DNA of 64,000 nucleotides from Clostridia bacterium. GTDB taxonomy: Bacteria > Bacillota > Clostridia > UMGS1883. The stretch covers positions 86,500 to 150,499 of the forward strand of contig JAZTXM010000013.1 of NCBI GenBank assembly GCA_045636425.1. The letters are read 5' to 3'. The notes under the pieces were generated by a model that did not search any database, was not told the DNA's origin, and saw only the letters and a list, made by a program, of their open reading frames with translations. This document shows, in pieces, positions 27,853 to 46,782 of the stretch (its first letter is position 1; every line of letters begins with the position of its first letter). The translations under genes were made by a program, and so were the position numbers.

Positions 27853-28131
27853 TTAGTGCAGTAAGACTCGAACACCTGTTGTCTCAAACGAATTATTTTT
27901 GAAGCCTTTCAATTTGTCGGTCTTGAAGGGCGGCAGCCCATCTGCGACCTCCGCATTAAAATTCTCCTAAAAATAATCCGTTTGAGATGCGAGCAGTTTT
28001 AACAGTGGCAATTTTTTATAAAACAAGGAAAAGCCCGCAGGTAATACTTCCGTATTATCAAGGGATTTGACACAGTTTTAGGAGAAATTACCCTGTTAAA
28101 ACCAATAGGGGTTCGAGTCTTACTGCACTAA
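27853..28131. mobile_element. MITE-like 279-bp insertion bounded by 24-bp inverted repeats
   Basis: ttagtgcagtaagactcgaacacc at 27853-27876 versus ggggttcgagtcttactgcactaa at 28108-28131. This segment is absent from the otherwise homologous copy at 38962-38980. Confidence 0.4.
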
Positions 28132-28157
28132 CCAAGCCAAAAACAGGGAATTTTTCC

Positions 28158-28270
28158 CAGTAGATGTCAAATAGATGTCAAAACAGCACTTTTCAAAAAA
28201 AATTAAGAAAACGTAAAAACCGCCTAACCCTATTGGTTAAGCGGTTTTTAACTGGTGAGCCATCGGAGAT
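28158..28270. repeat. Copy of the tRNA-Lys-proximal element end (agatgtcaaa direct repeats, terminator, first 18 nt of the tRNA 3' end)
   Basis: About 95% identical to 46238-46350. The tRNA-derived portion stops after tggtgagccatcggagat and is followed by a 130-nt unrelated insert. Confidence 0.65.
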
Positions 28271-28463: not shown

Positions 28464-28563
28464 TGGTGAGCCATCGGAGATTCGAACCCCGGACAACTTG
28501 ATTAAAAGCTGTAAAAACAGCATGTTTAGACACATATGTTTTCCGTGCAAACCCCAATATGAT
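28464..28563. repeat. att site: exact 45-nt copy of the tRNA-Lys 3' half plus the 55-nt element left-end sequence
   Basis: 28464-28508 is identical to 46332-46376. 28509-28563 (ctgtaaaaacagcatg...caatatgat) recurs at 25326-25380. Confidence 0.7.
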
Positions 28564-29155: not shown

Positions 29156-30091
29156 TTATATTTCACCACCCATATAGTAGATGTATTCTTCAATTTCTTC
29201 GGGAGAGAAGCCTTTTCCGAGAAGTTTGTCAATATCATCGGGAGAATAGCCCTGATAGCACGCTATTGATTTTAAATCCTCTATGTATTCATTTTTTGAG
29301 TAGCTTCTTCCCCATCCGTAGGAAGAGAATCCAAAATCCCACCAATTCTTTCCACTGTAGTAGCTATATTCAAAGTTTTCTTTTGTCAGTTTCCCGTCAT
29401 AGCCGATTTTAAGTATCTCCCCTTCCGCGACATTTACTTCTTCGTACTCTCCATTTTTAAGGTTGCTAAACAGCGGTGAATCTACAAGTGCTTTGTAGAG
29501 TATTTCGTCGGTACTGGCATAAACATAAAGCTTAAGCTTCGGGAAATGAAGAATTGATACAGGGGAATCTCCCTTTACGAGATAGAGATTATTTCTGTCA
29601 TCCAGTATTGAAAAGCTGAAGCTTCCTTCAACCTTTTCTGCCATGTATCTGATACTGTCAAAACAGATTCTTTTCTGACTTTCTATTAACTGTACCGCTA
29701 TGTAGGAATCCGTTTCGACTTTTGTTTTAGGAAGCTTGTACTTCTTTTTAAGTTCATCATCGTTATAAAGTACTCCGTTATGCGCAAGGGAAAACCTTGC
29801 ATTTTTTGTTTTCCCGAAAAAAGGATGATTATTATAGTTTCTTTTCTCACTTCCCTGCGTGCTATGGCGTGTATGCCCTATCAGTGCTTTCAGGTTATCG
29901 GAATGCTGAAAGTCAATTTTATTTGCTGCCTTTGCTTCTTTGATAATTCTGATTATTCCTCCGCTGACAAATGATATTCCCGTTGCATCCGTACCTCTTA
30001 CGGATGCGTGTTCTGCAAGGGAATTAGTAAGGTCAGACAATCCTTTAATATCTTTGTTACTGTAGTTTAAAAACCCGAATAATCCGCACAT
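29156..30091 (-). CDS. Class II (Ntn) glutamine amidotransferase-like protein
   Basis: N-terminal MCGLFG has the Cys nucleophile at position 2. The Ntn-hydrolase fold is about 230 aa, with an extra C-terminal segment of about 80 aa. Confidence 0.65.
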   Translation of the reverse strand: MCGLFGFLNYSNKDIKGLSDLTNSLAEHASVRGTDATGISFVSGGIIRIIKEAKAANKIDFQHSDNLKALIGHTRHSTQGSEKRNYNNHPFFGKTKNARFSLAHNGVLYNDDELKKKYKLPKTKVETDSYIAVQLIESQKRICFDSIRYMAEKVEGSFSFSILDDRNNLYLVKGDSPVSILHFPKLKLYVYASTDEILYKALVDSPLFSNLKNGEYEEVNVAEGEILKIGYDGKLTKENFEYSYYSGKNWWDFGFSSYGWGRSYSKNEYIEDLKSIACYQGYSPDDIDKLLGKGFSPEEIEEYIYYMGGEI

Positions 30092-31228
30092 TTACATTTC
30101 CTCCGTTTCTGTTTCAATTTCATTTACATACAATCTTTTTTGTTTCAGGTATTCGATAAGTTCTGCTTTCTTAGGTAGAATCTTCTGTACAAAGTCACTC
30201 CAGGACATATTTTCCATTTCAAGGTCTGCCATATGTATTGCATGGAAGCATATTTCGTCCACAAGCTGAAGAGTAGCCACAAACGTACTATAGCAAAGCG
30301 TGCCTCTGAATAATCTGAATTCTACCGTATTGGCATTTTCAAGATTGACTGCAACATACCTCCCCATATGCCTGTCCTTGGCTTTCTTATAGGTTTCTTC
30401 CGTTGTGGTAGAGATAGTTGCATATCTCGCCGCCCATCGATTCAGATTTTCAATTGTTCTTCTGCTGAATTTGACTATTTCGTTCCAGTGTTTTTCAACA
30501 AAGAATACGATTCTTCCGATAACTGCTTCCTGCTGTTCGTATGTTTTTCCGAAAGCCTCTCTGCTCACATGAATGTGCAATCCGCAGGTACTTGTCTGAT
30601 GTGACCTGTAGCCCAGGCGTATGGCTTTATCAAATACTTCGTGCCAGTTCATTTTGTTTATGTGATAGTCAAGGCTCATAGGGTGACTTACTATTTCAAA
30701 GCCATCGTCGATACTTCCGTCATGCTTACAATAGATGTGCTCGCCTGCATCGTTGGCAATATTAATGATTGTCTCTGCCTTATCATTGTCTTCCCCACCT
30801 CTGTCTATCTCCAATTCAACACCGAAAAATAAATTACCCGAGCCGTGGAAAATCGGTTCGGGTTTATAACTGTAATTTTTTATTGCTCCGCTTATAAGCT
30901 TCTGATAGCAGTCATAGCAATATGGATAATCGCTGTCATCGTTTTCGTAATACGCGGAATCGTTATGTATAAGTCTGCCACAGTCTTCGCAGTTGGTATA
31001 GTTATAATCGTAGCAATGTCTGCAAAGGACAATATTTTCATTACCTTCTGCATCTTCACGCCAGATTCTTTCATTACAGTTCATACATACTACCGTTTTT
31101 TCTTCAAGGCAATCTGTACAGTAGATTTTTCCTTCGAATTCGTGATAGTTCTCTCTTTCAAGAATTGCCCCGCAACAAGAGCAGGTTAAGTTTCCGTTTT
31201 TCATTTTTGTTCTCTCCTTAGTATTCAT
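30092..31228 (-). CDS. Amidoligase (glutamine-synthetase-like, Amidoligase_2-type) with N-terminal multi-CxxC zinc ribbons
   Basis: Four CxxC pairs in the first 110 aa. Then GVELEI (E.E metal site) and TCGLHIHVS (H.H motif), as in GS-like amidoligases. Adjacent to the GATase on the same strand with no gap. Confidence 0.6.
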   Translation of the reverse strand: MNTKERTKMKNGNLTCSCCGAILERENYHEFEGKIYCTDCLEEKTVVCMNCNERIWREDAEGNENIVLCRHCYDYNYTNCEDCGRLIHNDSAYYENDDSDYPYCYDCYQKLISGAIKNYSYKPEPIFHGSGNLFFGVELEIDRGGEDNDKAETIINIANDAGEHIYCKHDGSIDDGFEIVSHPMSLDYHINKMNWHEVFDKAIRLGYRSHQTSTCGLHIHVSREAFGKTYEQQEAVIGRIVFFVEKHWNEIVKFSRRTIENLNRWAARYATISTTTEETYKKAKDRHMGRYVAVNLENANTVEFRLFRGTLCYSTFVATLQLVDEICFHAIHMADLEMENMSWSDFVQKILPKKAELIEYLKQKRLYVNEIETETEEM

Positions 31229-31786: not shown

Positions 31787-32836
31787 ATGAATATACATAC
31801 TTTTGAATTAACTTCAATACTTACTAATGACAAATACTATAAAATACAGAAAGCTTTAAAAAATAAAGATAAATCCAAATGGAAATCCGAACGTAACGGT
31901 ATGCTATATTTTGGTTTACGTGAAAAAGGGATTTTAATTTATATGTTTATACTGAAGAAAAAGAACTACTACTCTTACCGCATTATATATAGAATATCCG
32001 CGAGAAGAGTCCTTGATAAGAATAATTATGTTGATCTTTTTGATTTACAACTATATGACGAATTGGAATTGGAAGCAAATCGACTTCTGTTTGAAAAAAG
32101 TAACCTTCTACCTAAACTGAACGAATGCGAACTTACCCGAATTGATTTTTGTTACAATGCCAGGCTTGAGAATCAGTATCAGGTTAAGGCATACATAAAG
32201 ACAATTAAAAACGGCTACATACCACCAAAACATTACGAGTTTCTCCTCTATAGCGAAACGGGCAAACGGTTTATTCCACCTAAAAATGACTTCACTTTTT
32301 CCAAAGACAACTATGTGGAGATTTCTATATACAACAAAAAGGCTCAGATGAAGCAAGACGACTACTACCCCAAAAGTGAAATTGACAGAGCTTCAAATAT
32401 AGTGAGAATGGAAATCAGATGTTATAAAAAACTAATCAAAGAGTATTGTGAGAAGCATAACATTAATTCCCTGCATCGCTTTATGGGATGCTGTGGTAAT
32501 TTGGGAAACGAGCTTTACAACAAGTATCTTTCTAAAATATCAGGCAGCGGCTGTATATATACTCTCAAAGAAACCAATCAGCGTATTGATATGAGTGAAT
32601 TCCGTAAAAAGGATATAACGCTGATGAAAGAATTTGTTAAGGACATAAATCTCCACGGAGCACCTGAAACTTTTGAAGTATATGAAAGAACATACAGTAA
32701 AGCGATATTAAAAAGAATGGTGGAACTGTTTGAAATAATTGATACAAGCTTTATAACATTACCTGTACGTGAGGCTAAATTGTTTGATAACGGTAAGCTT
32801 CCATCACCTTTAAAGTTGTATTATGAATTATGCTAA
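31787..32836 (+). CDS. Hypothetical protein (possible replication/mobilisation protein of the element)
   Basis: 349 aa, Lys/Tyr-rich. Precedes the Xis-like gene. No motif securely recognised. Confidence 0.35.
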   Translation: MNIHTFELTSILTNDKYYKIQKALKNKDKSKWKSERNGMLYFGLREKGILIYMFILKKKNYYSYRIIYRISARRVLDKNNYVDLFDLQLYDELELEANRLLFEKSNLLPKLNECELTRIDFCYNARLENQYQVKAYIKTIKNGYIPPKHYEFLLYSETGKRFIPPKNDFTFSKDNYVEISIYNKKAQMKQDDYYPKSEIDRASNIVRMEIRCYKKLIKEYCEKHNINSLHRFMGCCGNLGNELYNKYLSKISGSGCIYTLKETNQRIDMSEFRKKDITLMKEFVKDINLHGAPETFEVYERTYSKAILKRMVELFEIIDTSFITLPVREAKLFDNGKLPSPLKLYYELC

Positions 32837-32875
32837 TAACATTAAATTAATAATAAACCGAAAGGAGCACATATA

Positions 32876-33064
32876 ATGTTTGAAAACCCATACGATATCT
32901 TATCTCCCGAAGAAGCAATGGACGAACTTCGGATAGGGAAAAATTCTATTTACGAACTATTGAATTCAGGAAAACTTAAAGGATTTAAAGTAGGACGCAA
33001 CTGGAAGATTCCACGAAAATCTATAGACAAATATATTGACAAAAATATCAGAGAAAGCGAGTAA
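32876..33064 (+). CDS. Excisionase-like HTH protein (MerR/Xis superfamily)
   Basis: 62 aa; ...LRIGKNSIYELLNSGKLKGFKVGRNWKIPRKSIDKYI matches the HTH_17 / Xis signature. Confidence 0.55.
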   Translation: MFENPYDILSPEEAMDELRIGKNSIYELLNSGKLKGFKVGRNWKIPRKSIDKYIDKNIRESE

Positions 33065-33070
33065 ATAATT

Positions 33071-33769
33071 ATGAATAGTTTTGAAGTAATAAGATATTTA
33101 ACAGTACATATGCACGGGTACAAAAGAATCGGCAAAGAAAATGTATTACAGAAAGTTACCGCTACAGGATTCTTTGCGTTCCTTAATATCAACGGTGTCA
33201 GAAAAGATATAATCATAACAGCAAAACACTTTGCGGTTGAAATATCAAGAGTTGTTTTTATGTTACATTACAAAGAGAATGGCAAATTAGTCACAGTTCC
33301 GGTGTCTACAGAAGTAGAGTGGAATTTTTCAGAAGATGCAGACCTTGCTTATTGTGAGTTTAAACCTATTGAGGAACGTTTTCGAAAAATCACCGGAAGA
33401 AGAGTATATGCTGCAGCATTAACCCAGAAGGATTTTTTAACTGAAAAACAATTAAATGAAATCAATATTTTAGACGAGGTTGTTACGGCAGGTTATCCGG
33501 CAGGAGAATCAAGTACACATCACAAATTCCCTTTGTTTTCAAAAGGCTATGTTGCCTCTCTGCCGAAAGATGTTTTTGAAGACGGAGAAGGATTTGTTAA
33601 TATTTCTGCTATAGGAGGCTTCTCCGGTGCACCCGTATTTTTGAACAGCCCCGGTTTAAAGTTTCTTGGAGTTCTTGTAAGCGGTATAATGGAAGAAGAT
33701 TCTGATTCATCAGTGATGTGCAAGTATGTTCCCGCATATAAAATACTTAGGTTATTAGAACAGCAATAA
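33071..33769 (+). CDS. Trypsin-like (S1/S1C) serine protease domain protein
   Basis: TAKH (His), an Asp, and GGFSGAPVF (a GDSGGP-like Ser motif) in the canonical order. No signal peptide. Confidence 0.55.
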   Translation: MNSFEVIRYLTVHMHGYKRIGKENVLQKVTATGFFAFLNINGVRKDIIITAKHFAVEISRVVFMLHYKENGKLVTVPVSTEVEWNFSEDADLAYCEFKPIEERFRKITGRRVYAAALTQKDFLTEKQLNEINILDEVVTAGYPAGESSTHHKFPLFSKGYVASLPKDVFEDGEGFVNISAIGGFSGAPVFLNSPGLKFLGVLVSGIMEEDSDSSVMCKYVPAYKILRLLEQQ

Positions 33770-34131: not shown

Positions 34132-34197
34132 CAAAATCACTTGTCCCCTTGAGGCAATTTGCTTCAAGGGGCTTTTTTTATTTTAGGAGGAAAGATT

Positions 34198-35335
34198 ATG
34201 AGTAAAAGAGGAAATAACGAAGGCAGTATTGTAAAACGTAAAGACGGACGTTGGCAAGGAGCCGTAACAATCGGAAGAAATCCTGACGGCACTCAAAAGA
34301 GGCAGTATGTCTATGGCAAAACAAGAACTGAAGTTTCAGAAAAGATTAACTCTATTCTGTTTGATATTAATAATGGAACATATATTGATAAAAGTCAGAA
34401 TCCTACAGTAAAACAATGGCTTTACACCTGGCTAACCACTTATAAGAAAAACAGTATTAAGCCTAGGACGCTGGACCAGTATACAAGCATCATAAGATAC
34501 CATCTTATTCCGGAGATTGGCGACATACGATTAGTTGATCTCAAGGAAACCAATTTGCAAAGATTCTATAACAGGCTCTCAAAAGAAGGACTATCTCCAA
34601 GGACTATCCAGCTTATTAATACCGTACTATACGGTGCAATAAAAAAAGCTATAAAGTGCGGTCTGGTAATAAGAAATGTATGCGATGCTGTTGAGCTACC
34701 AAAACAACAGAAGAAAGAAAGAAAGGCGTGTATTAACTCCTGAGGAACAGGAAAGCTTACTGGAGGTTTTAAAAGAATCAGAATATGGTGCTATGTATAT
34801 CTTCGCTCTTTTCACAGGATTAAGAAAAGGCGAAGTCCTTGCTCTTACCTGGTCCGATATAGATTTAGCTAATCACTTAATTAACGTAAATAAAACTCTA
34901 GGGCGTGTAAATACATATGTTGATACAGGAAATAAGACTCAGCTTGTAGTAAGCACCCCAAAGACTCAAACGAGCATGAGAGTGATTCCTATCATCGAAT
35001 CTCTGATTCCACTTCTTGAAAAGCAGAGAAAACTTACTCAAGGCAGCCAGTCAAATCTTGTCTTTCCTTCGGACGCTGACACTTACATCGACCCCGGTAA
35101 CTATAACAGACTTTTCTACAAGCTTGTGAAGAAAGCCGGAATTCCCAAGGCTCACCCCCATTCACTCAGACACAGCTTCGCAACACGAGCGCTGGAAGCC
35201 GGACTGGACCTCAAAACAACGCAGGAGCTTTTGGGGCATAGTTCAATTGACATCACCGCCAATCTGTACACCCACGCCCTGTTGGAGCACAAGCAGAAAG
35301 AAATTAAAAAGCTTGAATCCGTGTTTAATTTATAA
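34198..35335 (+). pseudogene. int: Tyrosine integrase (phage/ICE type), frameshifted in an A-rich run
   Basis: The N-terminal SAM-like / arm-binding part (34198-34743) and the catalytic part (34676-35335; HSLRHSFAT, LGHSSIDITANLYTH) are in different frames. They overlap around AGAAAGAAAGAAAGG at 34712-34726. Confidence 0.75.
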
Positions 35336-35441: not shown

Positions 35442-37355
35442 GTGCTCTTACCTATGAAGCCTAGCTATATGAATATTGAACCTATGAACTCAACCATCAT
35501 CCATGCAAAAGATTTGACGAAGATAAGCAATGGAAAGTATTTTGTCAAAGATGATTGCACCTTTTTCAAAAGTCCGCATAGCAGCCGAAAAATTTGTAAT
35601 TTTTATGTCAGAGAACTTAAATTCAACCGAAATTTTGAAACCGTAATCAGTTTTACTGTAACCTTAAAGCTAGTAGATGAATACGGCATCTATGATGAGG
35701 AAAACACTTTTCCGATATGTTATTATGATGAACCGATTGGCTGGTTAAGATATGGTTTTGACCCATCTTCTTTTCATATATACGAGCAAAAAGCTCACTT
35801 TAACTTGCATATGAAAGAAATTTTCAATTTGATATGTTCAGAAGAATACTGCAGTTGCGAAGAAGCAATCCTTGGTTGGGACTTTGATACTGTAAATTCC
35901 AATAAACCGTTGGCATTTAGGAATACATACGATTTCAACAAAATCGAAAACCCATTTGATTCAGTATATCAGCCTTTGGATGAAGTTACAAAAGAAGAAG
36001 TCCCTGAAGAAATGTTATTCAAATATATGAAACTCGCAGATTTAAAAGTTTCAGTTCCTTTAATGTCATTTATGTTGCTTGCAGCATTAAATAGCTTTGA
36101 ACTGTTAGGCACTAATACGAGACCAGGTTTCGTTGTGGCAATCACCGGTAAAACAGAAGAAGTAAGACGAAAGACTGCTCTCTTCTTCACAAATCTTTTC
36201 AAAAGAGACTCTACATTCAATAAAAACGAATATAAGCTATTTCACATTACGCAATCTGATACGCTGACAGACATCCGTTTTAAATCCGAGTATGCTAAAG
36301 ATTGTGTCCTTATTGCTTTTGAACCCGACAAGAGGCATTTGAATTATTTAATTAATGATTTATATAAAACAAATGTAGTTGATAAAGAACATCCTATTCG
36401 TAGTCTCTGTTTATTTACAGCGGATAACATTGATGATATAAAGGCAGACAATATAATCAATGTGCATCTCGACGAGAATTTTAATCTGGATCGAGTTATT
36501 AAATTCTTTTCACCTGAAAAAAACAAGCGACAAAAGAAAGATAAATTAATTGAAAGTATCTATTACTATATAAACGCACTTATAGGCAGGCTATTAGATA
36601 ACGGTCATTTTATAAACGAACAATTTCAAAACCATAAGTTGATTTTTGAAGCATCACATAGGATTTCTGATTTTTCTGATTCTGCTTACACTGCATCTGT
36701 TTTACTTAGTTTTGCCATTAATATGTATAGATATTATTCTGCAGGTACGGGCTCTCTCCTTTTGTTTGAGAAAATTGATAAAATACTTATTCAAACTACA
36801 AAAAATTCTTTTCCTAAAAAAGGAGAATCAACTGAAGATGATTTTTCTGATGCAAGGAAAGTATGCACTATACTCGACGATTATTTCTACAAAAACAAAG
36901 ATGAAATCTCTAAAGTCAAACAATCAGAATATTCAGGCCCGGTATTAATGTGGTATGACGAAAAGTATTTATATATTAAAGGAAAAAGTCTGACCAAAGT
37001 ACTTAATAACAGCGGGACTAAATCAAAATTTTCTGTAAGTGTAAAGAAAAGTATGGCCGAGAAAGGCATTATTGAATCTTACAAAAAAGAAAATGGACAA
37101 TATGAATATAGCATCAATCTGCAAAAACAAGTGTATAATAGCTTAAAGACAAAAGGTCGATTTGTTGCCTTTAACAGAGAGAAGTGCAGAGAATACGATT
37201 TGTTCAAAAAGATTGAGGAGCATCGTATAGTTCCGGAGCCAGCAGTAGAAGCAACACCTCTTTCAATTCCGTTATCACGGATTAGAGGAAGCCACTATTT
37301 GGATTTGAATAACTCCGATATAGAGATAGTTTTTGAGACGAGAGGAAAAGAATAA
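35442..37355 (+). CDS. Large hypothetical protein (637 aa), element cargo
   Basis: No recognised motif. Lys/Asn-rich. Confidence 0.35.
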   Translation: MLLPMKPSYMNIEPMNSTIIHAKDLTKISNGKYFVKDDCTFFKSPHSSRKICNFYVRELKFNRNFETVISFTVTLKLVDEYGIYDEENTFPICYYDEPIGWLRYGFDPSSFHIYEQKAHFNLHMKEIFNLICSEEYCSCEEAILGWDFDTVNSNKPLAFRNTYDFNKIENPFDSVYQPLDEVTKEEVPEEMLFKYMKLADLKVSVPLMSFMLLAALNSFELLGTNTRPGFVVAITGKTEEVRRKTALFFTNLFKRDSTFNKNEYKLFHITQSDTLTDIRFKSEYAKDCVLIAFEPDKRHLNYLINDLYKTNVVDKEHPIRSLCLFTADNIDDIKADNIINVHLDENFNLDRVIKFFSPEKNKRQKKDKLIESIYYYINALIGRLLDNGHFINEQFQNHKLIFEASHRISDFSDSAYTASVLLSFAINMYRYYSAGTGSLLLFEKIDKILIQTTKNSFPKKGESTEDDFSDARKVCTILDDYFYKNKDEISKVKQSEYSGPVLMWYDEKYLYIKGKSLTKVLNNSGTKSKFSVSVKKSMAEKGIIESYKKENGQYEYSINLQKQVYNSLKTKGRFVAFNREKCREYDLFKKIEEHRIVPEPAVEATPLSIPLSRIRGSHYLDLNNSDIEIVFETRGKE

Positions 37356-37611: not shown

Positions 37612-38310
37612 ATGAGTAATATAATTATATTGCACGGAACAGATCACATTATAGAAAATCCTGATATAAATATCGGTAATGAGCACAATGATTATGGCAG
37701 AGGTTTTTATTGCACAAAATCTGAAGAGATGGCAAAGGAATGGGCTTGTAAGCAAAATACAGACGGTTTTGCAAATCGTTATGAATTAAATACAGACGGT
37801 CTCAAAATTTTAAATTTGACCGACGGTCAGCATACAGTATTAAACTGGATTGCAATTTTACTTAAATACCGCACATTTAAATTAAGTTCTGAAATCGCTA
37901 TTGATGCAAGAGAATATATTATAGATCACTATTCGGTTAATATTGCGGATTTCGATGTGGTTGTGGGATATCGTGCTGATGACTCCTATTTCCAATATGC
38001 TGAAAGTTTTGTTTCCAATGGTCTCCCCCTTCGCAGTTTAAATAAAGCATTAAGGCTTGGAAAACTTGGAGAACAAACTGTTTTGGTATCACAGAAAGCA
38101 TTTGAGCAGATTAAATTTATTGATGCTGCTCCTGTGTCAAAGGATGAGTATTATCCAAAGTTTATTGACCGTGATTCTTCTGCTCGAAAAGCATTTAAGC
38201 AAGAAATCAAAAAAAGCAAGGTCTACCGTGATGATATATTTGTACTCGATATTTTAAGAGAGGAGATGCAGAATAATGACCCACGCATACAGCGAATTAT
38301 ATTTGAGTGA
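37612..38310 (+). CDS. DUF3990-like protein (hypothetical)
   Basis: N-terminal ILHGTDHIIENPD...GRGFYCT, which I recall as the DUF3990 signature. Paired with a DUF3791-like gene. Confidence 0.4.
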   Translation: MSNIIILHGTDHIIENPDINIGNEHNDYGRGFYCTKSEEMAKEWACKQNTDGFANRYELNTDGLKILNLTDGQHTVLNWIAILLKYRTFKLSSEIAIDAREYIIDHYSVNIADFDVVVGYRADDSYFQYAESFVSNGLPLRSLNKALRLGKLGEQTVLVSQKAFEQIKFIDAAPVSKDEYYPKFIDRDSSARKAFKQEIKKSKVYRDDIFVLDILREEMQNNDPRIQRIIFE

Positions 38311-38923
38311 TGCAAAAAGTTGCCTTGCCTGTATGTTTGATTATACAATAAACGATTGCAAGCTTGAAAGTGATTGGATTGCATCACTTTTTATGACTAC
38401 AGGCTATGCACAAAAGTTTGAAACTGGTAATCCCGCTATTATTTCAGGAATGTCAGGAATCGAACTCGGAAAAGCAATCGTAAAAAAGGCCTATAACAGA
38501 AAGGATGCCCCCGAAGCAAATTTCCGTGAAGACCGTTCTCCCGAATATTGGGCAGGTTGGGCTTTGGCAGAATATCAGTGGTTTTCAGGTCGCATATTTA
38601 AAGATATCTTTGAACGTATTCCGCTTTCAAAAATCATCAATATGTATTCTGTTTATCATGAAATGGATATAAGCCAGTTTATAGATTCAATGGAAAAGTT
38701 CTATAACGAAACAATTCTTGAAACCAAGCTTAAAAGAATTCGTGAAAACCGAGGTGTTTCTCAATCAGAACTTGCAAAACTTTCAGGTGTTAAACTTCGC
38801 TCTATCCAGATGTATGAGCAGAAGGTTAATGACATAGATAAAGCACAAGGACATACATTATATAAAATCTCAAGAGTCCTCGGATGTAATATTGAGGATT
38901 TGCTTGAAAATCCAATGGGTTGA
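38276..38923 (+). CDS. DUF3791-like protein with C-terminal XRE HTH
   Basis: C-terminal HTH (LKRIRENRGVSQSELAKLSGVKLRSIQMYEQ). Its 3' end is part of the repeated element-end module. Confidence 0.45.
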   Translation: MTHAYSELYLSDAKSCLACMFDYTINDCKLESDWIASLFMTTGYAQKFETGNPAIISGMSGIELGKAIVKKAYNRKDAPEANFREDRSPEYWAGWALAEYQWFSGRIFKDIFERIPLSKIINMYSVYHEMDISQFIDSMEKFYNETILETKLKRIRENRGVSQSELAKLSGVKLRSIQMYEQKVNDIDKAQGHTLYKISRVLGCNIEDLLENPMG

Positions 38924-38980
38924 GTACTTTTTATGAACGATAATCTTTATTTCGTGCACAAAACAGAGGATTTCTCTTAG

Positions 38981-39075
38981 CAGATGTCAAATAGATGTCA
39001 AAACTGCATTTTTTTAAACAAAGCAAAAAAGTAAAAACCGCTTAACCATATTGGTTAAGCGGTTTTCCAGTGGCA
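38981..39075. repeat. Third copy of the element-end module (agatgtcaaa twice, terminator hairpin, degenerate tRNA-core remnant)
   Basis: cagatgtcaaatagatgtcaaaac...aaaaccgcttaaccatattggttaagcggtttt, then ccagtggcaaaaaag in place of aactggtgagccatcggag. Confidence 0.55.
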
Positions 39076-39180
39076 AAAAAGATGCAACGTTTTTTTAACG
39101 ATATACTTGCTGCCACTCGTGGGATATATTTGCTTTAAAAACTCAGCCATTTATAACAATGTTTTCTTGCCATAGCACCA

Positions 39181-42100
39181 CTAATTCTCGTCGTCATCTT
39201 CCCTTCTCCGAGTTTCTTGTTCAAGTTGATGATGTCTAATATTAAGTTTTGCCTCTCTGACATATCCATCAGAAATAAGACGAAGTGTTTCTGCATACTT
39301 TGCATATCCTATTGATTCAGCGGATTCTGCAAGTTTCTTATATTTTTTAGCAAGTTGGAATTCCGGCTTCCCTTCGGGATCAATCCATACAACTCCTCGC
39401 TGATTAAAAGTACCAATCCTATATCCCACACGCATTTCTTCATTTTCAATCTTATTGAGTTCTCTCATGATAAAATCATCAATAAGACCATTCTCAAGTT
39501 TACGCGCATAAGAAAGGCCATTACCGATTGTTTGCTGAACTATAGCTTCTCGATCTTCTACCTTAGCCCAAGCCTTGCAATAGTTAACCCATTCGCAAAA
39601 ATCGTTTTCGTTGTAGTTTCCATCCCAATCTGTTCCTGGAATCACACAAAAATCGTGTAGAATTTTCCAAAGTCTCTTTGCCATATGTTCCGAGATGTTT
39701 TCTTCGTGTGTTTCAGAATGTCTTTTCTTATAGAATAGTCTTATCAGTTCGCAGAAAAACATTGGCTCATTTGCCAATCGATATCTCAAAGCTAATGGTT
39801 TTACTTTGGAATATTCATCAAGCCAAGATAAATATATAAGTTCTACATCAGAAATTTCCTCTATGCTTATACTCCTCGTCTGCTGTAATAATTCAATCAA
39901 ATTTCTAACAGCATCGGGATCCAACCTATCACCGCTTTCAGTGATTGCAGCTTGAGTTAACACTTCGTGTAATTTGTCATGAGAAATACTACAATTTTCA
40001 GCCGTGATACCAAAAAGATTAATAGCCGTAGCATATCGTTTTTGTTCAACCAACTGCCCCCACACATAGTTTAAATCAACTTCATCATCCAAGCCAAGAC
40101 GTGGAACAACGATAGAATTCCAATACAAATTGCTCTGCTCGCCAAGTATGTCTTTGACAATTTCAAACAAACGCATAGAGGGACGAAGACATGAAAGAAC
40201 CCAAGAAACATAATCCAAACTATAAGTTTCCAACTCTGTTTGAATTATCGCATCATAATCATTGGCTATTATATATCCGTTAATTATTGATGCAAAAATC
40301 TCCTTACTCAACCTGGACTCATAACACATTTTTAAAAGCGCTTTTATGTCTTCTTCTTTTAGTTGCTTACCTAAGTTTTGAGCAATCCATGCTTCGTTGT
40401 TGAGTTCTTTTGCAAATTCTACTACTGAATCTATTCCGTACGAAACATATATTTCATAAACTGAGGTTTCTTGCTTATTACACTTAGCTTCCCATTTTGT
40501 ATGAAATTCACCCTCATTGTCATAATCAAAATATCCTGGTTCATACAATCTTCTATATATATATCTAATATCCGTAGGAGCAACTTTTTCAATAGTAGTA
40601 TCTAGTAACTTCATCATGAAATCGTCCAATTCATCCTCTGTGTTATGAACTAACCATTCTTTTTGATTTACAAGCTGTTTCCAAAATGGATATTTTTTCG
40701 AGTCATCCCATTCCATTGCCTGTTCTGATATTAAAGATAAATACTCTACGATTGTATCACGGTCCATATCATCGTAATATGATAACAGATCAACCATTTT
40801 AGAATGGTCATCTTTAGCTAACCCTAACGCTAAGTGTGAATAATATCGGTACAAATCTAAAATATCTTCATCAGGAGTTCTAACTTCTTTCGGGGAAATT
40901 GAAATAATATATCGAGGTTGATGTGTATCTCCGGTGTAACGTGTAGTATGTGGAAGTAGCCCTTTGATCACTATCCAAGCAATGTCAGGACATTCTTGTT
41001 GTAATGCTTTAATTGCATTCTTCTGCTTTTCTTTTGATGCTAAAGTCTGTATATGCCACGGGAGCATAATGCTAATAATAGAATTAATCGGTGTATTAGA
41101 TGAATTGGTCTTATCAAATTTCAATTTTGAAATCTGACCTAATATTCTAATGCATTTTACAAAATATTTTTTATCCCAGGCCAAGCCTTCCAAAGACCAC
41201 AATATTGAACAAATGAAATTTCTGGAAAACAACAAATTATCGCCATTCTTCGGAAATAAAGATTCTATATTTTGAGGAACATTAACAATTTGCCTCTCCA
41301 AACAAGATAAATACTCTGTTGGGTGAATTTCAGCAACAGTCGGCAGATGTGAATTTAAACTCATCCACGTCGAACTACTCGCTTCAGAGAATAAGTTGCG
41401 AATCAACATTATAGCTTCATAATTAACTGTTTCTGAAGAACACGACAATTGCGTTCCAAACAGATTGCAAATCATTGCAAGGCCATGTATTATTCCATTT
41501 CGTAATGCTTCAGAATGAACAAACGGTCCAGACTCTGGCACTAGGATACTAAAATCACCATTATCCTGAATTCGTTTATCTTTTTCTTTAAGAACCTCTT
41601 GAGAGGTTTCAAAGAATTTTTTTATATCATTTTCAAAATATAATTTTGAACAAATTTTGATAATTGCTCGTCTATGATTAACATACCATAGTCCTTGTGA
41701 AAAAGAAACATTTGGGTTTGGCTGCAAAGAATTCTCTTGTATTATTTTTTGGATTTCCAAATAACTTCTTCCTAAAAACGACTCCAAAAATTTCTTATCA
41801 AAATCATTTTTTTCATTCCAGGATCCTACCAAAGCCAACTTTGCCCAAATGGAATCAATATCGAAATCAAGGGGTTCCGGCATAACATCGGATATCGCTA
41901 ATAAGTTTTCGAATTTTTGCTTGATATACTCTGGAATATTATCCAATGTAATATGTGCGGCCGCTTTATCACAGCTCGCTGCATAATCAACGAGTTGAGC
42001 CCAAACCGATACAGCGTTTTCCTTACTATTTGAAGCAATTAATGCATGAATTAAAAATTTATTTATGCTACTCTCATAATCCAAGTCAAAGACAAGAATT

Positions 42101-42705
42101 GTAAAGACTTTACAGAATTCCCACAATTGCTCGTCAGTAATATCTTGATCATTATTAGCCTTTTTTAAAAGAACTTTGATGGCATGCAACTTTTCTCGGT
42201 TGGTGCCATTAGAGTATCCCGGTCTATCGATTCTGTCAACGAAATCGTTCGCATCTAATGCACCGTTTGCTTGATCATAAATAAAGCGCAACGAATTTGC
42301 GTTCGCAACTGATCCCGAAATCAATACTATTTTATCAGTTCGCTTATCAAACATCGGTTTGTTAAAATCACTCCAAGCAGAAATAACAACATCCTTAAAT
42401 GTAGCATTGTTTTCGGTAAGAGTTATCCCATGCTTGATTTGACACACTAACTTTGCAGAATATGTATCAAATGACGAAAATAAAACGATATCATCAGTAT
42501 CATATCCCGATCTTTTAGCTTGAAAAAGCACCGATGTTATGGGCAAATTCAGCAAAGGCGAAAATCCATCTACCAACAACGTCAACAAAAATGCGGCTTG
42601 GACACGATGTTCAAAATCCACCCCTCCACCGCCAGTTGAAAAAGGGTTGCTGAGCGCTGATACCGTTGCCTTGTTGTGTTTTTCTTGGTTTTCTTTTGTT
42701 ATCAT
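39181..42705 (-). CDS. Large (1174 aa) uncharacterised protein: possible N-terminal PD-(D/E)xK-like motif plus a long alpha-helical repeat region
   Basis: N-terminal STGGGGVDFEHR...YDTDDIVLF...AKLVCQIK has the D...D...QxK spacing of restriction-endonuclease-like folds. The remaining roughly 900 aa are helical with no NTPase motif. Confidence 0.45.
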   Translation of the reverse strand: MITKENQEKHNKATVSALSNPFSTGGGGVDFEHRVQAAFLLTLLVDGFSPLLNLPITSVLFQAKRSGYDTDDIVLFSSFDTYSAKLVCQIKHGITLTENNATFKDVVISAWSDFNKPMFDKRTDKIVLISGSVANANSLRFIYDQANGALDANDFVDRIDRPGYSNGTNREKLHAIKVLLKKANNDQDITDEQLWEFCKVFTILVFDLDYESSINKFLIHALIASNSKENAVSVWAQLVDYAASCDKAAAHITLDNIPEYIKQKFENLLAISDVMPEPLDFDIDSIWAKLALVGSWNEKNDFDKKFLESFLGRSYLEIQKIIQENSLQPNPNVSFSQGLWYVNHRRAIIKICSKLYFENDIKKFFETSQEVLKEKDKRIQDNGDFSILVPESGPFVHSEALRNGIIHGLAMICNLFGTQLSCSSETVNYEAIMLIRNLFSEASSSTWMSLNSHLPTVAEIHPTEYLSCLERQIVNVPQNIESLFPKNGDNLLFSRNFICSILWSLEGLAWDKKYFVKCIRILGQISKLKFDKTNSSNTPINSIISIMLPWHIQTLASKEKQKNAIKALQQECPDIAWIVIKGLLPHTTRYTGDTHQPRYIISISPKEVRTPDEDILDLYRYYSHLALGLAKDDHSKMVDLLSYYDDMDRDTIVEYLSLISEQAMEWDDSKKYPFWKQLVNQKEWLVHNTEDELDDFMMKLLDTTIEKVAPTDIRYIYRRLYEPGYFDYDNEGEFHTKWEAKCNKQETSVYEIYVSYGIDSVVEFAKELNNEAWIAQNLGKQLKEEDIKALLKMCYESRLSKEIFASIINGYIIANDYDAIIQTELETYSLDYVSWVLSCLRPSMRLFEIVKDILGEQSNLYWNSIVVPRLGLDDEVDLNYVWGQLVEQKRYATAINLFGITAENCSISHDKLHEVLTQAAITESGDRLDPDAVRNLIELLQQTRSISIEEISDVELIYLSWLDEYSKVKPLALRYRLANEPMFFCELIRLFYKKRHSETHEENISEHMAKRLWKILHDFCVIPGTDWDGNYNENDFCEWVNYCKAWAKVEDREAIVQQTIGNGLSYARKLENGLIDDFIMRELNKIENEEMRVGYRIGTFNQRGVVWIDPEGKPEFQLAKKYKKLAESAESIGYAKYAETLRLISDGYVREAKLNIRHHQLEQETRRREDDDEN

Positions 42706-43113
42706 TAATTACCACCTATTTTTTTCGTACAGAATGTTTTCGATATCAAAGATAATTCGAATTTTGGTTAACCATCGTTGTATTTATAACTCTACGCTTA
42801 AAACATCTTTCTTATAACAACAGCTTGCTCCGGAATTATAACAGGGGTTATTCCTTCACCTCTATCATATCCATAATAAGAATGGCTGAAGAGTAAGTTT
42901 GATTCAAAAGCAAATAAATTGATTTTATAATGCACGAAGTACAATTCATGAGCTGTAGGCTTGATTCATGAAATCCTTGATTTCAATCAACCCCACCAGC
43001 CAATTCATTGTTTTTAAGCTTTACTTGAAATCTTTATAGAATCAGTGAACAATTTAGATGCCACTAATTTTAGCAATAATTCGTGTTAAGTTAGAAATAA
43101 AAAATATTTAACC

Positions 43114-43818
43114 CTAAAACATAATACATATCACCATAACAACTATTGGTAGTACAAACAAAAATAGTTTTAATATCCAATTGGCTATAATTTTCATTTG
43201 AAGAAGTATAGGTGATATTTCGCTTAAGTAGTTTCTAATTTTTTCTTTATCTTCATCACCACCTGCATCAAAAGCAGAAAGTTTTTTAAACCAACGAATC
43301 TCCTTTTCTTTGCATAACGACTTGACTGTGTTAAAAAAATCAATATCATTTCTAAATTCAACATTATCCACTATCTCGTTATATTTAGAAATAAATGAAT
43401 CCAATTGCTCTTCTTTCAAACTTCTTTTTAGAGTTTTTAAATCATTTATAGCCTTAGTTATCCTCTCAATTCTCTGTGCATAATTAGCATTACTGTTTAT
43501 CAATGAATACGCAAGCATAATTACAGACAAAACAAGGCCAAAATATTCACACATTTTACTATTATACCATTCAAAATATAGTGCAGTCAAAGAATGAATA
43601 ATTAAAAAAATGCTATAATACACAAGAATAAAATCAGACATCTTTTTACTATCAGATAGTCTTTTTTCCATGTTTATGTAATTACTAAGTGTTGTTTTAC
43701 AAATCCTTCTCCATACTATTAAATTTTCATAATCTGTTGTCATTTGTATATCTCTCCGTTTCGCATTTTCGACTTTTTTGACAATCTTTATACAAAGACT
43801 GTATAATCTGGATGCCAT
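43114..43818 (-). CDS. Membrane protein with two central TM helices, a helical segment and a C-terminal TM (abortive-infection-effector-like; hypothetical)
   Basis: TM helices FILVYYSIFLIIHSLTALYF, FGLVLSVIMLAYSLI and ILKLFLFVLPIVVMVICIMF. The start is uncertain; the ORF is open to 43899 and overlaps the upstream gene. Confidence 0.4.
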   Translation of the reverse strand: MASRLYSLCIKIVKKVENAKRRDIQMTTDYENLIVWRRICKTTLSNYINMEKRLSDSKKMSDFILVYYSIFLIIHSLTALYFEWYNSKMCEYFGLVLSVIMLAYSLINSNANYAQRIERITKAINDLKTLKRSLKEEQLDSFISKYNEIVDNVEFRNDIDFFNTVKSLCKEKEIRWFKKLSAFDAGGDEDKEKIRNYLSEISPILLQMKIIANWILKLFLFVLPIVVMVICIMF

Positions 43819-43835
43819 GCTTTTTCCACAGTTGT

Positions 43836-44354
43836 TTATTCTACATGTTCTGCTTTGTTTTTTACAAGTCCTATAATCGCCGAAATAATAACTACGCACT
43901 CATATATCACACCGCCCATTGATGCAACTGCCATGTTATAAATAATGCACAAAGGCGATTTAATAAACATTGCCCGTCTTGTGTTCTGCGGATTTGAAAA
44001 AGAAAGACTCACAGTTGATGTAACAAGTCCCGCTATTAAAAACAACGAATAAATATTTTCCCAGGCAAGCATACCTGCAACTGCAATAAGAACAGAGGTT
44101 ATAATTACTTCAGCTTTGCTTTCACCTTGTTTCTTGTTACGAAAAGCAAAGTATAAACATATAACCGCAGACAAAAAATTAAGTGCAGTTGCCGTGGGAG
44201 CTGAAATCAAAAAATAATGTACAGAAAAAGTTAATGCCGTCACACACTGGGAAACTATAATCCCAAACTGAGTTTTTCTTTGATATGAAACAAAACCCAA
44301 TATTACAGCAACAATTCCCAGCGCCTGTCCAATTATATAAGTTAAATTATCCAT
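43836..44354 (-). CDS. YgjV-family inner membrane protein
   Basis: 172 aa with 5-6 TM segments. The N-terminal YIIGQALGIVAVILGFVSYQRK resembles YgjV. Confidence 0.5.
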   Translation of the reverse strand: MDNLTYIIGQALGIVAVILGFVSYQRKTQFGIIVSQCVTALTFSVHYFLISAPTATALNFLSAVICLYFAFRNKKQGESKAEVIITSVLIAVAGMLAWENIYSLFLIAGLVTSTVSLSFSNPQNTRRAMFIKSPLCIIYNMAVASMGGVIYECVVIISAIIGLVKNKAEHVE

Positions 44355-44599
44355 AGTAATATCTCCCTTTTCAATATCCTCCAGTACACCCTATATAAAT
44401 GACATAAGGCGTAGGTACCACTAATCAACGCCTCCCTTGTGTAAAGGGAGGTATTTTATAATTTCGACTTTTTTCGACGCTCTTCATAGGCTTATCTTAA
44501 GTTTGAGCTAAAAACAAATAAATTGACTTTATAATGCACGAATTGCAATTCATAACTGTAGGCTCGATTCATGAAATCCTTTAATTCAAACTATCCCTA

Positions 44600-45823
44600 T
44601 TATAAAGTCTTATTCTCTTTAATAAAATCAATCATATTCACATGTAAAATCCCATCTCGTTTTTGCAATAAGGTATCTGTTGTGAATAAATATTTTGGGA
44701 AATTATCTCTGATTTTTGTAAATGGTCTGTATTCTCGTTCCTCGGTAGATTGTTCCGCAATGGTCATAGCAACCTGAATATAAAAATAGTCATCTACATT
44801 CTGTCTTACTATAAAATCACATTCCAGATTTCCAATTTTACCTACACTTAATTTATATCCTTTAGATTTTAAATAACAGAATAATAAGTTTTCAAGTACA
44901 GGTCCGTAGTTAATTCTGCCGTCTACATTCATAGAATAGTATATACTCAAATCGGCAAGATAATATTTTTGCTCTGTTTTTAACGACTTTTTCGATTTCA
45001 TATCAAATCTTGGGCATTTATATATTATCTTTGCACTTTCAAGCATTTCGATATATTTGTGTACCGTATTTTCTTTTACCGCTATATTTTCTTTAGCCAA
45101 ATATTCTACAATGTTGGACACGCTAATTGTAGAGCCAAAATTATTTACAATAAAGGTTTGTATTTTTTCAAATGCTGCTCGATTTCTAATTCTTTTATTT
45201 TTAGATATGTCCTTTTCAAATATTTGAGTAATAACACTTTGCACATATAGATTTCTATCATCAACATTATCAAATTCCAAAGATTTGGGAAATCCCCCGT
45301 CACGAATATATGTTGTAAATTCTTCAACAATATTCTGTGATACCTCTTTGCCAAGAAACTTTTTCATTTCCAGATATTCATAAAATGTCAGCGTATACAT
45401 CTCTACTTCGATATATCTTCCTGTAAGCTTGGTAACAAGCTCACCGCTTAAAAGATAGGAATTCGAGCCGGTAATAAAAACAGAATGTCCATCTTCCCTA
45501 TATCCATTTATTACTTCCTCAAAATTTTTAACATTTTGAATTTCGTCAATAAAAATATATTTTTTCTCACCATCGGTAATATAGCTATCTATAACTTCTT
45601 CTAATTTGTCGGCAGTTTTAATATTTTTAAACCCTCTTTTATCAAGATTAATATTAACTATATTTTGTTCGCTAACACCATTAGATTTTAAATCCTCCAT
45701 AACAGAAAGCAGAAAATACGACTTGCCGCAACGTCTGATTCCGGTTACGACTTTTATAATATCGCTATCATAAAATCCTCTTATTTTGTTAAGGTATTCT
45801 TCTCTCATAAAAATTTTAGCCAT
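44600..45823 (-). CDS. AAA-family ATPase with DUF4143-type C-terminal domain
   Basis: Walker A GIRRCGKS and Walker B IFIDEIQ. Characteristic C-terminal domain. Confidence 0.7.
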   Translation of the reverse strand: MAKIFMREEYLNKIRGFYDSDIIKVVTGIRRCGKSYFLLSVMEDLKSNGVSEQNIVNINLDKRGFKNIKTADKLEEVIDSYITDGEKKYIFIDEIQNVKNFEEVINGYREDGHSVFITGSNSYLLSGELVTKLTGRYIEVEMYTLTFYEYLEMKKFLGKEVSQNIVEEFTTYIRDGGFPKSLEFDNVDDRNLYVQSVITQIFEKDISKNKRIRNRAAFEKIQTFIVNNFGSTISVSNIVEYLAKENIAVKENTVHKYIEMLESAKIIYKCPRFDMKSKKSLKTEQKYYLADLSIYYSMNVDGRINYGPVLENLLFCYLKSKGYKLSVGKIGNLECDFIVRQNVDDYFYIQVAMTIAEQSTEEREYRPFTKIRDNFPKYLFTTDTLLQKRDGILHVNMIDFIKENKTL

Positions 45824-46331
45824 TCTAACCAGCCTCCTTTTGATTATATTATACCATATTTTTAGAAAATTGCAAGTTAAGGGGATAAAATTATTTAATT
45901 TATATATTTTTCGCCTCTTATAAGTTGTTTAATTGACACTTTTGAAATTGATAATGAGTTGAAAAGAGATTATTTCTTTATTTGTTTTTAAATGTAGAAT
46001 AAGTTAGTGAGCTATGAATATATCATTCTTATAGATGATATCCCCATAGCTCACTATTATAATCCTCGATGATGTTTAGTGCATATAAACTCAATTTTTA
46101 GTAATAACACTTTTATTAATTTATACACTACTTTCTAAATTAATTCTGACTAACTTTTGACTACAAATAGGAAATATCCATTTGCCAATAAAAGCCCTTA
46201 CGCTTCCCTTAACAAAGCCAAAAACAGCAAATTTTCTCAGTAGATGTCAAATAGATGTCAAAACGGCACTTTTCAAAAAAATAAAGAAAACGTAAAAACC
46301 GCCTAACACTAATGGTTAAGCGGTTTTTAAC

Positions 46332-46407
46332 TGGTGAGCCATCGGAGATTCGAACCCCGGACAACTTGATTAAAAGTCAAGTGCTCTGCCGACTGAGCTA
46401 ATGGCCC
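46332..46407 (-). tRNA. tRNA-Lys (UUU)
   Basis: Cloverleaf with encoded CCA; anticodon loop cuUUUaa. Target of the att copies at 28464-28508. Confidence 0.85.
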
Positions 46408-46412
46408 ATATA

Positions 46413-46489
46413 TGGCTGGGCTGGCAGGATTTGAACCTGCGGATGCCAGAGTCAAAGTCTGGTGCCTTAACCGACTTGGCTACAGCCCA
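46413..46489 (-). tRNA. tRNA-Gln (UUG)
   Basis: Acceptor stem TGGGCTG/CAGCCCA; anticodon loop cuUUGac; CCA encoded. Confidence 0.8.
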
Positions 46490-46526
46490 ACATAAACTAT
46501 GCCGGAATGCAACTCAGGTGGAAAAG

Positions 46527-46604
46527 TGGGGTGGATAGAGGGACTCGAACCCTCGGCCTCTAGAGCCACAATCTAGCGCTCTAACCAACTGAGCTATACC
46601 CACC
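46527..46604 (-). tRNA. tRNA-His (GUG)
   Basis: Extra 5' G(-1); acceptor GTGGGTA/TATCCAC; anticodon GTG. Confidence 0.8.
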
Positions 46605-46610
46605 ATAAGT

Positions 46611-46687
<77 letters not shown>

Positions 46688-46708
46688 ATTTATTTTGTGG
46701 CAAAAAAG

Positions 46709-46782
46709 TGGAGCGGGTGATGGGAATCGAACCCACCTATCCAGCTTGGAAGGCTGGTGTTCTACCAATGAACTACACCCGC
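46709..46782 (-). tRNA. tRNA-Gly (UCC)
   Basis: GCGGGTGTAGTTCAATGGTAGAAC-type sequence; anticodon TCC; discriminator U. Confidence 0.8.

Follow-up and report, generated by a model that had tools for sequence, protein, structure and literature searches.

A putative Cap4-type nuclease and alpha-solenoid protein among probable single-gene cassettes in a tRNA-Lys island of a Clostridia bacterium

The region under study covers positions 39181-45823 of a 64,000-nucleotide (nt) stretch of a Clostridia bacterium contig (JAZTXM010000013.1; the whole stretch is called here the window), where an initial annotation had read four same-strand genes next to tRNA-Lys as a defence or abortive-infection locus. 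The joint explanation that best covers the data, and which we consider probable, is that this block is a mosaic of four independently acquired single-gene cassettes and not an operon-encoded system, and that its largest gene encodes an autonomous sensor-nuclease in which a Cap4-type nuclease domain is joined to an alpha-solenoid. The four minus-strand open reading frames (ORFs) are present as annotated, at 39181-42705 (1174 amino acids, aa), 43114-43899, 43836-44354 (172 aa) and 44600-45823 (407 aa), bracketed by tRNA-Lys and the last end module of the island. Chance ORFs were ruled out by hundreds of full-length homologues (E = 0 to 1e-120).

The predicted nuclease domain of the large protein

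Proteins of the window were scanned against the Pfam, NCBIfam, PADLOC v2 and PHROGs libraries, RNA was searched with Rfam, and AlphaFold models were compared with the PDB by Foldseek. The features of the large gene are as follows.

39181..42705, minus strand: 1174-aa stand-alone protein, Cap4-type nuclease domain plus alpha-solenoid (ORF, homologues and AlphaFold)
41911..42651, minus strand: nuclease domain, aa 19-265, with a Cap4/LmuA/Avs3-like PD-(D/E)xK fold (model and homologues)
42433..42612, minus strand: predicted catalytic core, with E32 at 42610-42612, D71-D72 at 42490-42495, Q89 at 42439-42441 and K91 at 42433-42435
39181..41838, minus strand: C-terminal alpha-solenoid, aa ~290-1174, a putative sensor/regulatory domain (all-helical AlphaFold model)

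When modelled separately, the N-terminal domain reached a predicted local distance difference test (pLDDT) of 88.8 and a predicted template modelling score of 0.82, and its core showed the restriction-endonuclease type order alpha1-beta1-beta2-beta3-alpha2-beta4. E32 lies in helix 1, D71-D72 just before beta2, and Q89 and K91 in beta3, which are the canonical places for such residues. Two alignments of large-protein homologues (n = 56 and n = 62) revealed that G25, G27, G28, F31, E32, P50, Q62, D71, D72, Q89 and K91 are invariant, and the D...D...QxK arrangement noticed earlier is therefore a real property of the family. The best 28 Foldseek matches of the domain in the PDB were all Avs3, LmuA or Cap4 chains. 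Judged by motif arrangement and secondary-structure position, D71-D72...Q89-I-K91 corresponds to the D...QxK active site of Cap4 (D45/Q58/K60), as described for HamA-Cap4 and Cap4 of the cyclic oligonucleotide-based antiphage signalling system (CBASS; PMC11914072). The initial guess of a PD-(D/E)xK nuclease was thus supported by the structural model and could be narrowed to the Cap4/LmuA/Avs3 subtype, and the domain is predicted to be a putative DNA endonuclease with the residues E32, D71/D72 and Q89-x-K91.

A sequence search with the N-terminal domain returned 1434 cluster representatives at E <= 1e-3, and architectures were counted in the best 150 of these. The D...QxK motif was found in 135 of the 150, and in all of them the domain starts within ~80 residues of the N-terminus. 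By size, 69 of these homologues have 1130-1310 aa and 22 have 1550-1750 aa; a Walker A motif at residues 280-360 was present in 22/22 members of the longer class, while any GxxxxGK[ST] motif occurred in 2/69 of the shorter one. In pairwise alignments, residues ~19-265 were 39% identical to the very start of proteins of ~1700 aa, and these relatives carry an NTPase of the signal transduction ATPases with numerous domains (STAND) class at aa ~295-470, with matches to nSTAND1, nSTAND3 or NACHT. In the 1174-aa protein itself, no Walker A/B motif and no NTPase family match was detected. Its one 19-residue hydrophobic window (aa 38-56) falls inside the modelled nuclease core.

Full-length homologues of the large protein number ~110 (1150-1195 aa), and 262 relatives were counted in reference genomes from a collection of ~186,000. 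Their distribution is patchy over bacteria and archaea and includes Firmicutes, Proteobacteria, Cyanobacteria, Planctomycetota, Chloroflexota, Desulfobacterota and methanogenic archaea. A tblastn search of 50,697 phage records gave no match, and an exact look-up found no exact copy of the protein in the contig index. Pfam returned nothing at E <= 0.1, NCBIfam only a chance-level match (E 0.014; 15.8 bits against a cut-off of 140 bits), and the PDB chains none by phmmer and one chance-level match by profile search (E 1.3, a complex I subunit). The sole PADLOC match was weak and confined to the N-terminal domain (DUF626_VIII, 9e-6, 23 bits), the model being that of the accessory "serine esterase" of retron type VIII. 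Membership in retron type VIII was rejected at such a score and span, and the match was read only as a sign that retron type VIII may have the domain too. A description of a defence architecture combining Cap4 with a HEAT-type solenoid was not found in the literature, and the large protein looks like part of a family that is widespread and unnamed, combines a Cap4 nuclease with an alpha-solenoid and resembles an NTPase-less relative of Avs-type receptors.

The island shows signs of decay, in the form of an integrase split between two ORFs (34159-35335) and degenerate end modules, and the gene could in principle be a remnant whose nuclease domain is catalytically dead. This is very unlikely, given a full-length ORF with an AGGTGG ribosome-binding site 8 nt upstream, the intact state of all residues that are invariant in the family, and the close similarity to relatives: the closest full-length homologue (P0002) is 88% identical in protein sequence, and locus L002 shows 86% nucleotide identity over 39182-42696 only.

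The alpha-solenoid and the modularity of the two domains

In the full-length AlphaFold model (pLDDT 81), the alpha/beta N-terminal domain is followed by an all-helical solenoid of ~880 aa, in agreement with the ~900 aa of helical repeats annotated from the sequence. The solenoid gave only generic HEAT/ARM matches in the PDB (karyopherins and CAND1, E ~1e-4, template modelling scores 0.10-0.17), and PHROG 18693 matched it at 4.4e-58. Residues ~290-1174 align with a protein (P0111) whose N-terminus is an SLFN_AlbA_2 (Schlafen/AlbA_2) domain, and XRE-type helix-turn-helix (XRE-HTH) heads are found on the same solenoid in P0119 and in many plasmid proteins. Both domains of the large protein are modular, the head being swapped onto STAND proteins and the solenoid onto SLFN_AlbA_2 or XRE-HTH domains.

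The plasmid proteins with this solenoid (H2-H20; Rhizobium, Shewanella, Cupriavidus, Arthrobacter and others) have other N-termini in place of the nuclease, often XRE-HTH, and carry the annotation "helix-turn-helix transcriptional regulator" or "HigA family antitoxin"; examples are L098 4570-8688 and L099 4891-8709. In a 1272-aa solenoid protein of Shewanella, the N-terminal ~370 aa had no Pfam match.

Genomic context of the large protein

Gene neighbourhoods were compared in 80 loci with a homologue of the large protein, with flanks of up to 8 kb per side. Each of the families obtained by all-against-all clustering of the 1062 flanking ORFs was limited to 8 or fewer of the 80 loci, the recurrent ones being Hsd subunits, and the large protein has no conserved partner in this set. 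It is repeatedly embedded, on the other hand, in restriction-modification (R-M) and bacteriophage exclusion (BREX) loci, a type of embedding that serves as a criterion for nominating PDC candidates (bioRxiv 10.1101/2024.01.29.577857). In L062 and L066, the gene order is HsdM-HsdS-X-HsdR, where X is the large protein, with 4-nt overlaps of stop and start codons. HsdS lies directly upstream of the homologue in L013, L016 and L018, and HsdR downstream in L063. In Halomonas halodenitrificans (L022, 4493-8026), the homologue overlaps the end of a 1177-aa ORF, the N-terminal sequence of which was judged PglX-like by eye, with BrxL one ORF further downstream, and thus appears to be embedded in a BREX locus. 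BrxL is also found upstream of the homologue in L020 (adjacent) and L036 (two ORFs between). On a conjugative plasmid of Shewanella, a relative of the large protein follows an Abi-family gene and a superinfection-exclusion gene.

The translational coupling inside HsdM-HsdS-X-HsdR and the occurrence in or beside BREX loci would also suit an accessory or back-up factor of type I R-M or BREX, which might sense anti-restriction inhibition of R-M in the manner of PrrC, a protein almost exclusively embedded in type I R-M (bioRxiv 10.1101/2024.01.29.577857). We regard such a role as unlikely: R-M and BREX genes are missing from the 8-kb flanks in ~85-90% of the loci, that of this window among them, and the neighbours in the window are unrelated cassettes.

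A second alternative is a nuclease or regulator outside defence. It might process DNA, with the solenoid as a scaffold, or help mobile elements to compete or persist, and its link to defence genes would reflect only shared mobile DNA. The plasmid XRE-HTH proteins annotated as regulators or HigA-like antitoxins fit this explanation, as does the frequency of integrases, transposases and recombinases among the neighbours. It seems improbable, however, since every one of the closest structural matches to the nuclease domain is an immune effector, its closest relatives by sequence are the heads of STAND/Avs-type proteins, and residence on mobile DNA alone leaves the R-M embedding with overlapping stop and start codons unexplained.

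A mosaic of four cassettes

The tblastn searches with the SLATT, YgjV and AAA_14-DUF4143 proteins revealed none of them in the 80 large-protein loci, and they were missing even from the loci of the 72% and 85% identical homologues. Conversely, five neighbourhoods of SLATT_5 homologues (95% to 47% identity) contained no adjoining YgjV, reverse transcriptase or large protein. The conserved co-occurrence expected of a single four-gene operon was thus not found. In addition, blastn showed that nucleotide matches to the closest relatives of each gene (86-96% identity) end at or within ~110 nt of the gene borders, the spans being 45930-44610 for the AAA_14 gene (against L092-L096), 44372-43776 for YgjV, 43825-43077 for SLATT (against L081) and 42696-39182 for the large gene. 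The lack of co-occurrence and the breaks of similarity at gene borders together indicate that the block is a mosaic of four single-gene cassettes.

The gaps of 409 and 245 nt between the genes hold a duplicated segment of ~100 nt, which suggests insertion.

42894..42994 (copy A) and 44498-44597 (copy B), no strand: ~100-nt direct repeat (families D4 and D5), 86-88% identity, spacing 1604 nt

The two copies flank exactly the YgjV and SLATT pair, and the repeat may mark how this pair was inserted. A strong hairpin was predicted in copy A, with a folding energy of -26 kcal/mol (z -2.6), whereas copy B is no more stable than shuffled sequence (z 0.2). The repeat had no Rfam match and was absent from every locus fetched for comparison; the intergenic regions likewise gave no Rfam match apart from tRNAs.

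Homologues of the AAA_14 gene with 89% nucleotide identity are directly followed by a pair of genes for Amidoligase_2 and a class-II glutamine amidotransferase (GATase_6). This pair lies immediately downstream of AAA_14-DUF4143 in L092 and L094 (2194-4222 in the latter), and 13 kb away from it in the window, at 29156-31228 on the minus strand and at the far end of the composite island. The arrangement suggests that ~13 kb, including the large gene and the whole integrase-bearing element, were inserted between the AAA_14 gene and the amidoligase pair in this genome.

The initial annotation had combined the genes into one abortive-infection system, with the 1174-aa protein as sensor and the two small membrane proteins, perhaps with the ATPase, as effectors. 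Such a system would fit the close spacing on one strand, the effector or accessory role that SLATT proteins play in several systems (PMC9226505), and the interval from SLATT to the large gene, where no terminator-like site was predicted on the minus strand, so that read-through co-transcription of these two genes is possible in this genome. Against it stand the zero co-occurrence in the 80 large-protein and five SLATT loci, the cassette borders, the gaps with their duplicated segment, the conserved metabolic neighbourhood of the YgjV homologues and the fact that the large protein has an effector domain of its own. On these sequence comparisons, the single system appears largely refuted by comparative genomics and is hardly credible. 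Same-strand adjacency in a tRNA island is no evidence of a system here, and the defence-island cargo of this genome appears to have been built gene by gene.

The three neighbouring genes

43114..43743, minus strand: solitary SLATT_5 membrane protein, 209 aa (Pfam, NCBIfam and PADLOC)
43836..44354, minus strand: YgjV-family polytopic membrane protein (Pfam Imp-YgjV, PF10688, 8.2e-27)
44600..45823, minus strand: AAA_14 ATPase with DUF4143, PDC-S01 (Pfam AAA_14 1.1e-32, DUF4143 2.6e-16)

The membrane protein annotated as having a "2TM-helix-TM" layout belongs to SLATT_5, with two transmembrane helices and a C-terminal transmembrane segment. It scored above the cut-offs of Pfam (1.2e-12, 48 bits against 29.5) and NCBIfam (7.3e-21, 74.5 bits against 60), and its best PADLOC matches were models of SLATT proteins associated with reverse transcriptases (RTasSLATT, 3.7e-20). 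An exact 209-aa product on the NCBI record places the start at 43743 and not at 43899, so the gene does not overlap YgjV; in this form, the hydrophobic segments are aa 37-57, 64-82 and 183-209. Pore formation is the predicted effector function of SLATT proteins, which work together with reverse transcriptases of the UG17/DRT10 type, with CBASS or with RADAR (PMC9226505). The flanks of the gene in the window had no Rfam match, its neighbours are YgjV and the Cap4-solenoid gene and not a reverse transcriptase or CD-NTase, and its homologues stand alone by glycosidases, housekeeping genes or mobilisation genes. It is an orphan, predicted pore-forming effector without a UG17 reverse transcriptase, CD-NTase or SLOG partner.

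The similarity of the 172-aa protein to YgjV extends over residues 7-166 (profile positions 1-155 of 159), and its overlapping hydrophobic windows are compatible with ~5-6 transmembrane segments, as expected of the polytopic protein first annotated. Copies with 95-96% nucleotide identity are found on several metagenome contigs in a block of ADP-ribosylglycohydrolase (ADP_ribosyl_GH), YgjV, HAD-hydrolase and Cons_hypoth698 genes, and the gene in the window is read as a copy of a transporter gene from a metabolic locus, probably carried along as a passenger. Homologues in conserved housekeeping contexts, which would have spoken against a defence locus, were therefore found for YgjV only.

The ATPase with its DUF4143-type tail was recovered in full: PADLOC matched it to the PDC-S01 model PDLC04787 at 1.5e-136 (residues 3-404 against profile 9-409 of 412), and both Walker A (GIRRCGKS) and Walker B (YIFIDE) are intact. 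PDC-S01, an ATPase with a PD-(D/E)xK-superfamily domain, is one of the models that PADLOC reports most often in prokaryotes, with validation pending (PMC12988326, PMC13356809). By its sequence, the gene at 44600-45823 is an ordinary member of this common, experimentally unvalidated single-gene defence candidate.

A PADLOC scan of the four proteins thus returned PDC-S01 at full length and the reverse transcriptase-associated SLATT models, and only the weak DUF626_VIII match for the large protein. The proposal of a defence locus holds in so far as three of the genes belong to conflict-linked families (SLATT_5, PDC-S01 and Cap4-solenoid), and fails for YgjV and for the idea of a single system.

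The tRNA-Lys island

38943..39088, no strand: left-hand end module, a degenerate copy with 66-81% identity
39067-39033: terminator-like hairpin of the left module, 3' of the large gene (hairpin prediction)
46203..46349, no strand: right-hand end module, consisting of the tRNA-Lys 3' end, a terminator hairpin and ~130 nt downstream
46329-46293: terminator-like hairpin of the right module (hairpin prediction)

The tRNA-Lys gene (46332-46407) is the first of a five-tRNA cluster (46332-46782). The repeat-flanked, tRNA-proximal island of the initial annotation was recovered, with an end module of ~150 nt in three copies (28123-28270, 38943-39088 and 46203-46349; repeat families D1 and D2) that combines 18 nt from the 3' end of tRNA-Lys with a terminator hairpin and AGATGTCAAA motifs in tandem. 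An additional exact copy of 45 nt of the tRNA-Lys 3' end is located at 28464-28508. These copies indicate that at least two elements were integrated in tandem at tRNA-Lys, spanning ~28.1-46.3 kb, and the interval 39181-45823 is the tRNA-proximal segment of this composite, tandem island. The segment with the four genes has no integrase of its own.

In the neighbouring segment, a tyrosine integrase is encoded at 34159-35335 (plus strand) in two overlapping ORFs, with a SAM-like N-terminal domain at 34159-34743 and the catalytic domain at 34676-35335, and is probably a frameshifted pseudogene. Upstream, at 31787-33769 (plus strand), weak matches to a Phage_CRI-type replication initiator (E 0.0028) and to a trypsin-like peptidase (E 3.3e-4) are consistent with a small integrative element. 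The integrase is followed by a 637-aa ORF (35442-37355, plus strand) for which searches of Pfam, PADLOC, NCBIfam and PHROGs found nothing at E <= 0.001, and then, at 37612-38923 (plus strand), by a DUF3990 protein (Pfam 4.6e-42) and an overlapping protein with XRE-HTH in its C-terminal part. The latter two match the two components of the PADLOC multi-gene candidate PDC-M42 (A 4.1e-44, B 3.1e-6), and the pair thus adds another candidate defence module immediately to the left of the four genes.

An element of ~50 nt is located between YgjV and SLATT (43776-43829). It has three intergenic copies in the related contig L086 (5520-5574, 6466-6517 and 7612-7652), occurs also in L087 and L088 and upstream of SLATT in L081, and looks like a dispersed repetitive extragenic palindromic (REP)- or terminator-like repeat of the lineage. 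A serine-recombinase remnant considered for the spacer between SLATT and the large gene (peptide ...YGYDRGEGITPVIIPEQAVVIRKMF) was dropped, as Pfam was blank even at E <= 10.

Discussion

Judged from its sequence and predicted structure, the 1174-aa protein is most likely an autonomous, NTPase-less sensor-nuclease of anti-phage defence. The Cap4 domains of Cap4, LmuA, Avs3/Avs7 and HamA are inactive until a sensor module triggers their assembly (sources including PMC11914072), and because of this behaviour elsewhere, the solenoid would be expected to keep the nuclease off and act as an auto-inhibitory sensor. An infection cue, most likely a phage protein, would bind the solenoid, and the bound solenoid would release or oligomerise the Cap4 domains without an NTPase, an assembly otherwise comparable to that of Cap4, LmuA, Avs3 and Avs7. 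Non-specific DNA cleavage would then halt phage replication and might also cost the cell its life. We infer the anti-phage function, the nature of the trigger and the activation by oligomerisation from these parallels.

Several observations weigh against this interpretation. Neither Pfam DUF4297 nor the solved Cap4 chains match the N-terminal domain at the sequence level, so that its assignment to Cap4 is one of predicted fold and motif. The protein fits no validated PADLOC v2 model, its sole match there being the weak one to the retron type VIII accessory, and the R-M or BREX embedding concerns, as a raw proportion, only ~10-14% of loci. The matches of the solenoid are generic and HEAT-like and do not indicate a ligand, and its XRE-HTH fusions could point to a regulatory role instead. 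For the cassette structure, the possible read-through from SLATT is the corresponding point.

A wider and distinctly more tentative proposal is that the family may form an unnamed class of NTPase-independent pattern-recognition nucleases, widespread in bacteria and archaea, in which the solenoid binds a phage component directly and activates Cap4 without an ATPase, a cyclic-nucleotide signal or a partner. The solenoid would then serve as a sensor that can be moved between proteins, with Schlafen/AlbA_2 and XRE-HTH heads as its other outputs, and the protein would be a minimal "sensor plus Cap4" design, intermediate between Avs and stand-alone effectors. If the large protein protects against phage alone, a compact single-gene immune receptor would be added to the known repertoire, and Cap4 would be controlled without the STAND NTPase, SAVED, SMC-like or helicase partners of Avs, CBASS, Lamassu and Hachiman. 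The domains have already been swapped in nature, where this head is placed on STAND proteins and this solenoid is joined to Schlafen/AlbA_2 or HTH domains, and the series offers a handle on the role of each half.

Comparison with known systems places the smaller genes readily. The protein of 44600-45823 matches PDC-S01 over its full length, shares both of its Pfam domains and shows no difference from it. That of 43114-43743 shares SLATT_5, the two transmembrane helices and the C-terminal transmembrane segment with the SLATT effectors of DRT10/UG17, CBASS and RADAR, but the reverse transcriptase, CD-NTase, SLOG and adenosine deaminase of those systems are not found beside it here or in its close homologues.

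Among Cap4-bearing systems, the large protein differs from CBASS Cap4 (PDB 6vm6, 6wan, 7yib) in lacking a SAVED/CARF domain, a CD-NTase neighbour and the Pfam DUF4297 match. Lamassu LmuA and Hachiman I-B HamA (PDB 9hr5, 9ux8, 8zue) are Cap4-nuclease effectors like its head, but LmuA needs LmuB (an SMC-like ATPase) and LmuC, and HamA needs the HamB helicase, whereas the large protein has no such conserved partner in the 80 loci and has no DUF1837 domain. Upx, a single-gene defence protein (PDB 9wuf, where it is entered as a restriction endonuclease), has a similar size of ~1200 aa in one large polypeptide and shares a PD-(D/E)xK domain. Compared with Avs3 and Avs7, which are STAND proteins with an N-terminal Cap4-like nuclease (PDB 8dgc), the large protein is ~500 aa shorter and has no STAND NTPase, and thus ATP-driven tetramerisation cannot be assumed for it. 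The C-terminal solenoids of the STAND relatives show no sequence similarity to that of the large protein. The general layout is the same, with an N-terminal effector and a C-terminal helical-repeat sensor, both putative in the large protein, in one polypeptide.

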